DNA of 458 nucleotides from Escherichia coli (GTDB lineage Bacteria; Pseudomonadota; Gammaproteobacteria; Enterobacterales; Enterobacteriaceae), in the NCBI RefSeq assembly GCF_003334255.1, contig NZ_QOWU01000237.1; one strand, 5' to 3'. The notes under the pieces are model-generated. The model was not told where the DNA came from, did not search any database, and was given only the letters and a program-made list of their open reading frames with translations. The translations under genes and the position numbers were made by a program. Positions 1-458 of this stretch are shown here, piece by piece. The stretch's first letter is position 1, and every line of letters begins with the position of its first letter.

Positions 1-16
1 AATTTGAGAGACTCAC

Positions 17-34
17 GAACAACTTTCGTTGTTC
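17..34 (-). other. Perfect 7-bp hairpin with GNRA (GAAA) tetraloop in the 23S 5' flank
   Basis: Seen in sequence: 17-23 gaacaac and 28-34 gttgttc are perfect inverted repeats around tttc. In transcript sense this is GAACAAC-GAAA-GUUGUUC. It is not followed by a U-tract, so it is not an intrinsic terminator. Inference: a structural element of the pre-23S leader near the region that pairs with the 23S 3' flank for RNase III processing. Confidence 0.5.
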
Positions 35-62
35 AGTGTTTCAATTTTCAGCTTGATCCAGA

Positions 63-75
63 TTTTTAAAGAGCA
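63..75 (-). promoter_or_regulatory. Spacer boxA antitermination element (Nus-factor binding motif)
   Basis: Seen in sequence: reverse complement of 63-75 is TGCTCTTTAAAAA, one mismatch from the rrn leader boxA consensus TGCTCTTTAACAA. It lies immediately downstream (in transcript sense) of a boxB-like hairpin. Established knowledge: rrn operons carry a second boxB-boxA pair in the 16S-23S spacer that supports processive antitermination through 23S. Confidence 0.7.
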
Positions 76-76
76 A

Positions 77-114
77 ATATCTCAAACATCACCCGAAGAT
101 GAGTTTTGAGATAT
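77..114 (-). promoter_or_regulatory. boxB-like RNA hairpin preceding spacer boxA
   Basis: Seen in sequence: 77-86 (atatctcaaa) is perfectly complementary to 105-114 (tttgagatat). In transcript sense the inner part is CAUC-UUCG-GGUG, giving a C(UUCG)G tetraloop with a short bulge. Its position 2 nt upstream of boxA in the transcript matches the boxB-boxA arrangement. Confidence 0.6.
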
Positions 115-148
115 TAAGGCAGGTGACTTTCACTCACAAACCAGCAAG

Positions 149-224
149 TGGCGTCCCCTAGGGGATTCGAACCCCTGTTACCGCCGTGAAAGGGCGGTGT
201 CCTGGGCCTCTAGACGAAGGGGAC
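149..224 (-). tRNA. gltT/gltU/gltV/gltW: tRNA-Glu, anticodon UUC, 76 nt, CCA encoded
   Basis: Seen in sequence: reverse complement of 149-224 is GTCCCCTTCGTCTAGAGGCCCAGGACACCGCCCTTTCACGGCGGTAACAGGGGTTCGAATCCCCTAGGGGACGCCA. It folds as a cloverleaf by hand: acceptor stem GUCCCCU/AGGGGAC, anticodon stem CCGCC/GGCGG with loop CUUUCAC (anticodon UUC = plus-strand gaa at 188-190), T-arm with GGTTCGAATCC, discriminator G, terminal CCA (plus-strand tgg at 149-151). Established knowledge: matches the E. coli tRNA-Glu carried in rrnB/C/E/G spacers. The specific copy cannot be determined from the window; if the source is E. coli K-12 in reference orientation, a minus-strand Glu-type operon would be rrnG (gltW), but that is inference only. 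Confidence 0.95.
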
Positions 225-263
225 ACGAAAATTGCTTATCACGCGTTGCGTGATATTTTCGTG
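224..263 (-). other. Extended imperfect hairpin abutting the tRNA-Glu 5' end
   Basis: Seen in sequence: outer stem 224-231 (cacgaaaa) pairs with 256-263 (ttttcgtg); inner stem 237-244 (tatcacgc) pairs with 248-255 (gcgtgata); 3-nt loop gtt at 245-247; asymmetric internal loop at 232-236. Position 224 is also nucleotide +1 of the tRNA, so the 3' strand of the hairpin in transcript sense runs directly into the tRNA. Confidence 0.5.
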
Positions 264-395
264 TAGGGTGAGCTTTCATTAATAGAAAGCGAACGGCCTT
301 ATTCTCTTCAGCCTCACTCCCAACGCGTAAACGCCTTGCTTTTCACTTTCTATCAGACAATCTGTGTGAGCACTGCAAAGAACGCTTCTTTAAGG
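225..395 (-). other. Internal transcribed spacer, proximal part (between 16S 3' end and tRNA-Glu)
   Basis: Seen in sequence: lies between the 16S 3' terminus and the tRNA on the same strand. From memory it matches the E. coli Glu-type spacer (transcript sense begins CCTTAAAGAAGCGTTCTTTGCAGTGCTCACACAGATTGTCTGATAGAAAGTGAAAAGCAAGGCG...). Boundaries follow from the two flanking RNA genes. Confidence 0.85.
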
Positions 396-458
396 TAAGG
401 AGGTGATCCAACCGCAGGTTCCCCTACGGTTACCTTGTTACGACTTCACCCCAGTCAT
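396..458 (-). rRNA. rrs: 16S ribosomal RNA, 3'-terminal 63 nt (partial; gene continues beyond the window end)
   Basis: Seen in sequence: plus strand 396-458 is taaggaggtgatccaaccgcaggttcccctacggttaccttgttacgacttcaccccagtcat. Its reverse complement ends ...GTAACAAGGTAACCGTAGGGGAACCTGCGGTTGGATCACCTCCTTA, the conserved 16S 3' terminus. It contains the anti-Shine-Dalgarno CCUCC (plus-strand ggagg at 399-403). Established knowledge: this terminus is nearly invariant in Enterobacteriaceae. Mature 3' end placed at 396. Confidence 0.95.

Follow-up and report, generated by a model that had tools for sequence, protein, structure and literature searches.

What is the short U/A-rich motif that stands directly behind a hairpin between the tRNA and the 23S rRNA of an Escherichia coli rrn operon, and does it serve the transcribing polymerase or the RNA that is being made? 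We addressed this question in the window, by which we mean the whole 458-nt stretch of DNA analysed here, in which the original prediction had read positions 63–114 as a spacer boxB-boxA antitermination module with a one-base variant boxA. The minus strand of the window follows an E. coli rrn operon from the 3' end of 16S rRNA through tRNA-Glu into the tRNA-23S spacer:

396–458, minus strand: 3' end of 16S rRNA, its final 63 nt (Rfam SSU_rRNA_bacteria model positions 1471–1533)
Between the 16S end and tRNA-Glu, minus strand: 16S-tRNA spacer, 171 nt
149–224, minus strand: spacer tRNA, tRNA-Glu(UUC), from tRNA and Rfam annotation
148–1, minus strand: first 148 nt of the tRNA-to-23S spacer

The module lies downstream of tRNA-Glu, approximately 120–130 nt upstream of the 23S 5' end. 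The window is matched in 5426/5426 complete E. coli genomes, and those listed at 100% identity carry tRNA-Glu and 16S annotation; one exact match inspected in its genome is flanked by murI and murB and so belongs to the rrnB locus. This rrnB match has the long 171-nt 16S-tRNA spacer seen in rrnB and rrnG, while its tRNA-23S segment (window 120–148 and 20–30, minus strand) reads GUCACCUGCC and CGAAAG, as in MG1655 rrnC and rrnE; MG1655 rrnB (operon L001) differs in that segment, with GUCGCCGACC and CGAGAG. The rrn spacers are mosaics, which presumably arose through inter-operon gene conversion. Directly 5' of tRNA-Glu, window 223–264 holds a long nested inverted repeat (ACACGAAAAU...AUUUUCGUGU, with an inner UAUCACGC-GUU-GCGUGAUA), whose 3' arm overlaps the first tRNA-Glu bases and which has a terminator-like score on the non-transcribed plus strand.

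The module itself, 52 nt long and without RefSeq annotation, is present at ≥99% identity in 5181/5426 E. coli genomes, with a median of four copies each. An open reading frame scan of the window returned chance frames only (20–33 aa, within rRNA, tRNA or spacer), which rules out a coding explanation for the module, and a promoter and terminator scan was negative for the transcribed strand of the module, on which ground an internal promoter or terminator was rejected. The GC-rich hairpin followed by a U-tract that defines an intrinsic terminator was likewise sought, and no terminator-like site was found on the minus strand at 63–115. At a permissive threshold, an Rfam search of the window returned no boxB-boxA family, only StyR-44, 16S, tRNA and sub-threshold chance matches.

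The boxA element and the part of it expected to be bound by protein are located as follows:

63–75, minus strand: spacer boxA, TGCTCTTTAAAAA (window 75 to 63), RNA UGCUCUUUAAAAA, identical to the leader boxA at 12/13 positions
68–75, minus strand: boxA nt 1–8, UGCUCUUU, the NusB-NusE contact part by homology, identical to the leader boxA

The single difference from the leader boxA, TGCTCTTTAACAA, is C11→A, with nt 1–10 identical, as had been predicted from a leader reference that proved right and is invariant in all seven MG1655 leaders. TGCTCTTTAAAAA, with its one mismatch, is the sole match to the leader boxA in the window at ≤2 mismatches; shuffled windows held a mean of 0.03 such matches, and any match at all in 6/200 shuffles. 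The rrn boxA core on the transcribed strand, UGCUCUUUA, is matched at 9/9 positions by the spacer element, whose 19-mer is UGCUCUUUAAAAAUCUGGA. BoxA positions 1–11 are predicted to be unpaired, both in the local fold and in leader-trailer cofolds of a window-identical operon (L002) and of 5/7 MG1655 operons; in three E. coli cofolds (L001, L007 and L008), some boxA bases are predicted to pair with the trailer.

All seven MG1655 rrn operons were retrieved and aligned, following the check that the original prediction had proposed. The spacer boxA and the next 75 nt are invariant in 7/7 spacers; in the leaders, the boxA is invariant together with the downstream sequence through boxC. In every operon, leader and spacer each contain a single match to TGCTCTTTAAMAA, and there is no third. 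The block common to all seven operons starts approximately 2 nt before the spacer boxA, and the sequence 5' of boxA varies. For sampling across species, we took one genome per species and anchored each locus on the 23S 5'-end pattern rather than on boxA, because a boxA bait would have made the search circular. The scan yielded 120 loci, nearly all from Gammaproteobacteria, of which 104 were usable. GCTCTTTA occurred at ≤1 mismatch, in sense orientation and 40–350 nt upstream of the 23S anchor, in 77/104 loci; in the controls, it was found in 8/104 loci on the antisense strand, in ~11/104 after shuffling and in 2/75 within 23S (2–11%), corresponding to a 7- to 30-fold enrichment of the core that was confined to the sense orientation. 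Where the original prediction would have been undone by a lack of conservation in related genomes, the motif is therefore well conserved.

Near-identical forms of the spacer boxA occur throughout the Gammaproteobacteria. The exact spacer form, TGCTCTTTAAAAATCT, is found in Escherichia and Citrobacter, Pantoea and Mixta have TGCTCTTTAACAATCC, and Pseudomonas and Pasteurella have YGTTCTTTAAAAA, their leaders having C11. Searches of the loci from the endosymbiont of Pedicinus badii (L116–L119) and of locus L021 gave no recognisable spacer boxA, the best candidate being AGCAGTTTAACCA with four mismatches; in at least one endosymbiont with a reduced genome, the element appears to have decayed. Two loci labelled Tolypothrix campylonemoides (L094) and Pacificibacter marinus (L121) have a gammaproteobacterial-type 23S 5' end despite their cyanobacterial and alphaproteobacterial labels, L094 additionally with Lysobacter-like leader and spacer boxAs, and both are probably contaminant contigs in their assemblies.

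The variant base lies outside the part of boxA that is known to be read by protein. In the crystal structure of NusB-NusE with BoxA, the protein contacts only nt 1–8, and the E. coli numbering used there (G2, C5, U6) agrees with U1 at window position 75 (PMC3177189). Position 11 is A in 33/95 spacer boxAs compared with 4/36 leader boxAs, and 13 operons combine a leader C with a spacer A, these being counts of loci and not of independent events. Since position 11 is outside the contacted core and naturally varies between A and C, we infer by analogy with the crystal structure that C11→A would not impair NusB-NusE binding. The leader boxA also holds an ACA site for MazF that is reported to be cleaved (PMC12541390), and the AAAAA of the spacer variant abolishes this site (leader boxA at L001 416–428, and others). 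Evasion of MazF was considered as a reason for the variant and set aside: ACA recurs 30–40 nt downstream in the same spacer, and 60/95 spacer boxAs of other species retain it.

Upstream of boxA, the hairpin and its loop occupy the following positions:

76–115, minus strand: boxB-like hairpin, arms 76–91 and 100–115, from the MFE fold, covariation and RNAalifold
94–97, minus strand: UUCG tetraloop with a C-G closing pair, not conserved among relatives

The MFE fold comprises an 11-bp lower stem, a 2x2 internal loop and a 5-bp upper stem with C(UUCG)G closure, a 16-bp interrupted stem in all, with five G-C pairs (two in the lower stem and three in the upper). Its energy of −17.9 kcal/mol (z = −3.6) was equalled by 0/200 shuffles; the opposite strand folds more weakly (−14.5 kcal/mol, z = −2.2), as would be expected if the minus-strand RNA were the functional molecule. 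The last hairpin base, 76, adjoins boxA U1 at 75, so that boxA follows the UUCG hairpin with a gap of 0 nt, quite literally as described in the original prediction, whose range of 63–114 placed the element rightly and ended just one base too early to take in the outermost A-U pair (115).

Three different hairpin sequences, all of which fold, exist among the seven MG1655 operons: that of rrnB, rrnC and rrnE (UUCG), that of rrnG, and that of the tRNA-Ile/Ala operons rrnA, rrnD and rrnH. In a set of eleven Enterobacterales Glu-type sequences that aligned without gaps, 98.3% of the cells at hairpin pairs were paired, a value reached in 0/500 shuffles, and 8/16 pairs showed compensatory changes on both sides; sliding the alignment as a control dropped the paired cells to 19–50%, and RNAalifold independently yielded the same structure. 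The tetraloops of this set are UUCG, GUUA, CACG, UCCG, AUCA, UACG, CAAG and UGCG, of UNCG type in 6/11. Across species, a hairpin of ≥6 bp ends 0–3 nt before boxA in 72/90 distinct contexts (median z −2.6), compared with ~33/90 for control windows shifted 15–40 nt upstream and 9–16/90 for those downstream of boxA. The structure of the hairpin is under selection and its sequence is not. A "boxB" in the rrn sense, namely a stable stem-loop directly 5' of boxA for which no consensus is needed, is what we find here, and to that extent the name given by the original prediction stands; relatives differ in the UUCG loop and the features of the lambda boxB are missing, so that "boxB" here is a positional label for a hairpin without a lambda-type loop or consensus. 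In sequence, position, structure and conservation alike, the element has the features that define an rrn boxA with its upstream hairpin.

Downstream, boxA runs into two further features:

1–71, minus strand: match to Rfam StyR-44 (RF01830), 81.5 bits against a gathering score of 54, model positions 1–71 of 107, clipped at the window edge
43–64, minus strand: outermost 5' strand of the 23S leader-trailer helix, AAUCUGGAUCAAGCUGAAAAUU, a cofold prediction, starting at boxA A12

The 5' end of the StyR-44 model falls inside boxA at CUUUAAAAA and the model extends from there towards 23S, covering the last 9 nt of boxA. Like the spacer element, StyR-44 (Salmonella Typhi npcRNA 44) has seven copies upstream of 23S, and over window 1–71 the two overlap; unlike the spacer module, it leaves out the hairpin and boxA nt 1–4. 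Its authors could not exclude a processing intermediate (PMC2943607), and StyR-44 is most simply read as a fragment of the pre-23S leader and not as a separate gene. The match suggests a stable pre-23S leader fragment, the 5' end of which could result from cleavage or mark where a NusB-NusE footprint stops. Within this leader, window 17–34 (minus strand) also contains a perfect 7-bp hairpin with a GNRA loop, GAACAAC-GAAA-GUUGUUC, variants of which in MG1655 affect the loop or closing pair (GAGA in rrnB; CAAU...GUUG in rrnG and rrnH).

Cofolding of the 23S 5' and 3' flanks produced a long, interrupted leader-trailer structure that extends outwards from 23S helix 1. In E. coli, the leader strand AAUCUG-GA-UCA-A-GCUGAAAAUU (window 64–43) is predicted to pair with AGAUUUUCAGC-C-UGA-UA-CAGAUU in the 23S-5S spacer, the partner strand AGAUUUUCAGCCUGAUACAGAUU lying between 23S and 5S outside the window (L001 about 5478–5500), and the predicted helix begins with the last two bases of boxA, from A12 on. 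The same geometry, built from other sequences, is predicted in several lineages:

Pantoea: post-boxA leader strand UCCGG, pairing with CCGGA
Pseudomonas: post-boxA leader strand AAUUCGGAUAUGUGAU; helix of 16 bp
Vibrio and Shewanella: post-boxA leader strand AAUUUGGAAAGCUG(AU)
Halomonas: helix of 19 bp
Xanthomonadales: helix of the same geometry

Of the first 40 nt after boxA, 12–34 are paired with the cognate trailer in 40/45 loci; six loci have four or fewer paired, and five of those six have none. Shuffled trailers paired with a mean of 2–15 of these 40 nt. The median contiguous helix was 13 bp with cognate trailers compared with 7.5 bp with non-cognate ones, an imperfect control in that related species share helix sequence. 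MFE prediction returned no distal helix in a few loci, such as those of Pasteurella (L104 and L106) and L045. The distal 23S helix is thus a predicted one, drawn from MFE folding and complementarity across lineages. The precise geometry and the breadth of this placement of boxA at the helix base might be new; the idea of delivery has been published for both leader and spacer.

The closest known counterpart is the boxB-boxA-boxC set of the E. coli rrn leader, downstream of P2, which has the same order of hairpin, single-stranded boxA and 5' strand of a helix, here for 16S. The leader and spacer elements share boxA nt 1–10, and each boxA is invariant in all seven operons. They differ in the hairpin, which in the leader has a 6-bp GC stem and a 12-nt loop and in the spacer is unrelated in sequence, with its longer interrupted stem and UUCG; in position 11, which is A rather than C in the spacer; and in the helix strand from A12, which serves 23S rather than 16S. 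The GU-alternating boxC of the leader, UGUGUGGG, lies ~18–19 nt 3' of boxA as part of the RNase III stem; sought on the minus strand in window 1–62, it gave no match at ≤2 mismatches. The 16S leader-trailer (RNase III) helix has its trailer strand at window 349–390 (minus strand), where GUGCUCACACAGAUUGUCUGAUAG is complementary to the leader sequence UUUAUCAGACAAUCUGUGUGGGCAC, boxC included; the 16S cofold has 35 pairs, the first of them one base past the end of the leader boxA.

The lambda nutL and nutR sites likewise combine a NusB-NusE boxA with a GCUCUU core and an adjacent hairpin, and act as RNA on the transcribing polymerase. Their order, boxA-spacer-boxB, is the reverse of the hairpin-boxA order of the rrn spacer, and the lambda boxB is a 5-bp stem with a GNRA-like pentaloop read by N and located 3' of boxA, none of which applies to the spacer hairpin; unlike phage lambda, the E. 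coli host has no N protein. NusB-NusE binds rrnG boxA RNA with a Kd of 5–8 nM versus 80–90 nM for nut boxA, which is ~10-fold tighter. Elsewhere, boxB-boxA antiterminator domains are annotated in 16S-23S spacers, for example in cyanobacteria and Taylorella, with a boxA consensus and hairpin sequences that differ from those of E. coli. Their layout, as in cyanobacterial ITS domain maps, is that found here: past the spacer tRNAs comes a hairpin, followed by boxA.

The primary functional papers are those of Berg and colleagues from 1989 and of Pfeiffer and Hartmann from 1997; in the latter, mutation of boxA reportedly lowers downstream rRNA synthesis or antitermination. Current papers place boxB-boxA(-boxC) sets both after P2 and upstream of 23S, and describe boxA as necessary and sufficient to recruit NusB-NusE and thereby NusA, NusG, SuhB and S4, giving an rRNA transcription complex (rrnTAC) that is Rho-resistant and elongates faster (PMC6614797, PMC10250234, PMC8632103, PMC6614801). 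For this reason we regard the spacer element as already known: it has been described since the 1980s and is present in current reviews, and the original prediction was right to call it known rather than novel. What that prediction observed is confirmed; its interpretation is supported as to identity and known status, and NusB/NusE would bind the spacer RNA by homology.

Very probably, we are dealing with the nut-like site in the spacer of an E. coli rrn operon, which would re-anchor the rrnTAC before 23S. On leaving tRNA-Glu, RNA polymerase would make the stable hairpin and then the single-stranded boxA, nt 1–8 of which would be bound by the NusB-NusE(S10) dimer. Together with NusA, NusG, SuhB and S4, the rrnTAC would thereby be re-anchored, or newly built, on the transcript just before 23S, a step that should be needed because co-transcriptional cutting of the 16S stem by RNase III should detach the leader boxA. 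The polymerase would remain fast and Rho-resistant across the 2.9-kb 23S gene, and the RNA immediately 3' of boxA, as the 5' strand of the 23S helix, would be kept at the exit channel until its partner is made ~3 kb later. The hairpin would act as a structural companion and not as a sequence-specific protein site, probably keeping boxA single-stranded and insulated from the variable sequence on the tRNA side, and C11→A relative to the leader would be functionally neutral. Sequence, position, strand, fold, conservation, covariation and complementarity to the trailer were established in the present analysis; Nus binding and the composition of the rrnTAC at the E. coli spacer are carried over from the literature, in which deletion of the leader boxA lowers 30S activity only 2–3 fold and deletion of boxB carries no cost (PMC10250234); by analogy, the spacer element may also be only modestly important.

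A motif so short and U/A-rich might be a chance match in an AT-rich spacer beside an unrelated hairpin, but the number expected per window is far below one, the motif is invariant in all seven operons though its flank varies, the enrichment across the 104 loci is in sense only, and the hairpin shows covariation; the probability of coincidence is negligible. Alternatively, the element could be mainly a device for RNA folding or processing, forming the base of the 23S helix or carrying nuclease determinants of StyR-44, with Nus loading incidental. The start of the predicted helix within boxA would suit such a device, as would the stable ~109-nt RNA that starts inside boxA and the invariant block of the seven operons, which begins 2 nt before it. 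However, conservation falls exactly on the NusB-contacted core (G, then C or U, then UCUUUA); in the folds, this core is left unpaired and free variation is seen in the paired bases further downstream. The same core is kept upstream of 16S, where Nus binding has been demonstrated. Given also that StyR-44 could be a processing intermediate in the view of its own authors, we consider such a device improbable.

More serious is the classical view in the literature, in which the site serves purely to reload antitermination, its sole role being Rho resistance through 23S with none in RNA folding or processing. The rRNA BoxA does relieve Rho-dependent repression of a reporter in a NusB- and NusG-dependent manner, and BoxA mutations lower rRNA synthesis from plasmid operons (PMC6614797, PMC4807359). 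Against this, one study used ChIP and genetics to argue that Nus factors at rRNA mainly do something other than antitermination: strains deleted for nusB or suhB keep a nearly unchanged polymerase occupancy across rRNA, and an rnc mutation suppresses the 16S:23S imbalance seen in nus mutants (PMC4807359). Since occupancy is barely altered in those strains, the antitermination effect may be small in vivo, and the clause of the original prediction that the site keeps the polymerase in its modified state through 23S, which accords with the classical view, is disputed as a statement of the main role. Moreover, co-transcriptional cleavage by RNase III is strongly stimulated in vitro by a stable rrnTAC, going from 3% to >30% (bioRxiv 2026.03.17.712431), and pure antitermination would not require a leader-trailer strand starting at boxA, as is predicted in lineages with differing helix sequences. 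An exclusive role in antitermination is therefore possible but, in our judgement, rather unlikely.

Returning to a spacer nut-like site that re-anchors the rrnTAC, the benefit of the spacer boxA is debated between antitermination and RNA "delivery". In the delivery model, the complex does not let go of the leader or spacer element, and each 5' strand is thereby brought together with its 3' partner at the RNA exit channel (PMC6614801). We infer that re-anchoring follows RNase III cleavage, and likewise how much weight falls to processivity and how much to tethering; the location of boxA at the helix base favours a genuine contribution from tethering. More tentatively, and with the odds against it, the main job of the spacer boxA could be that of a zero-linker anchor for the 23S leader-trailer helix rather than antitermination. 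If this were true, the NusB-NusE-bound core would directly adjoin a distal stretch of helix whose sequence changes in step with that of the 23S-5S spacer throughout Gammaproteobacteria, the rrnTAC would physically pass the 23S leader strand to its partner ~3 kb later, and A11, which is commoner in spacers than in leaders, could tune the junction between boxA and the helix. BoxA at the very base of the 23S helix would provide a concrete geometry for large-subunit delivery, a model that has mainly been studied for 16S, in an element that belongs to the machinery for rapid transcription, folding and processing of bacterial rRNA.
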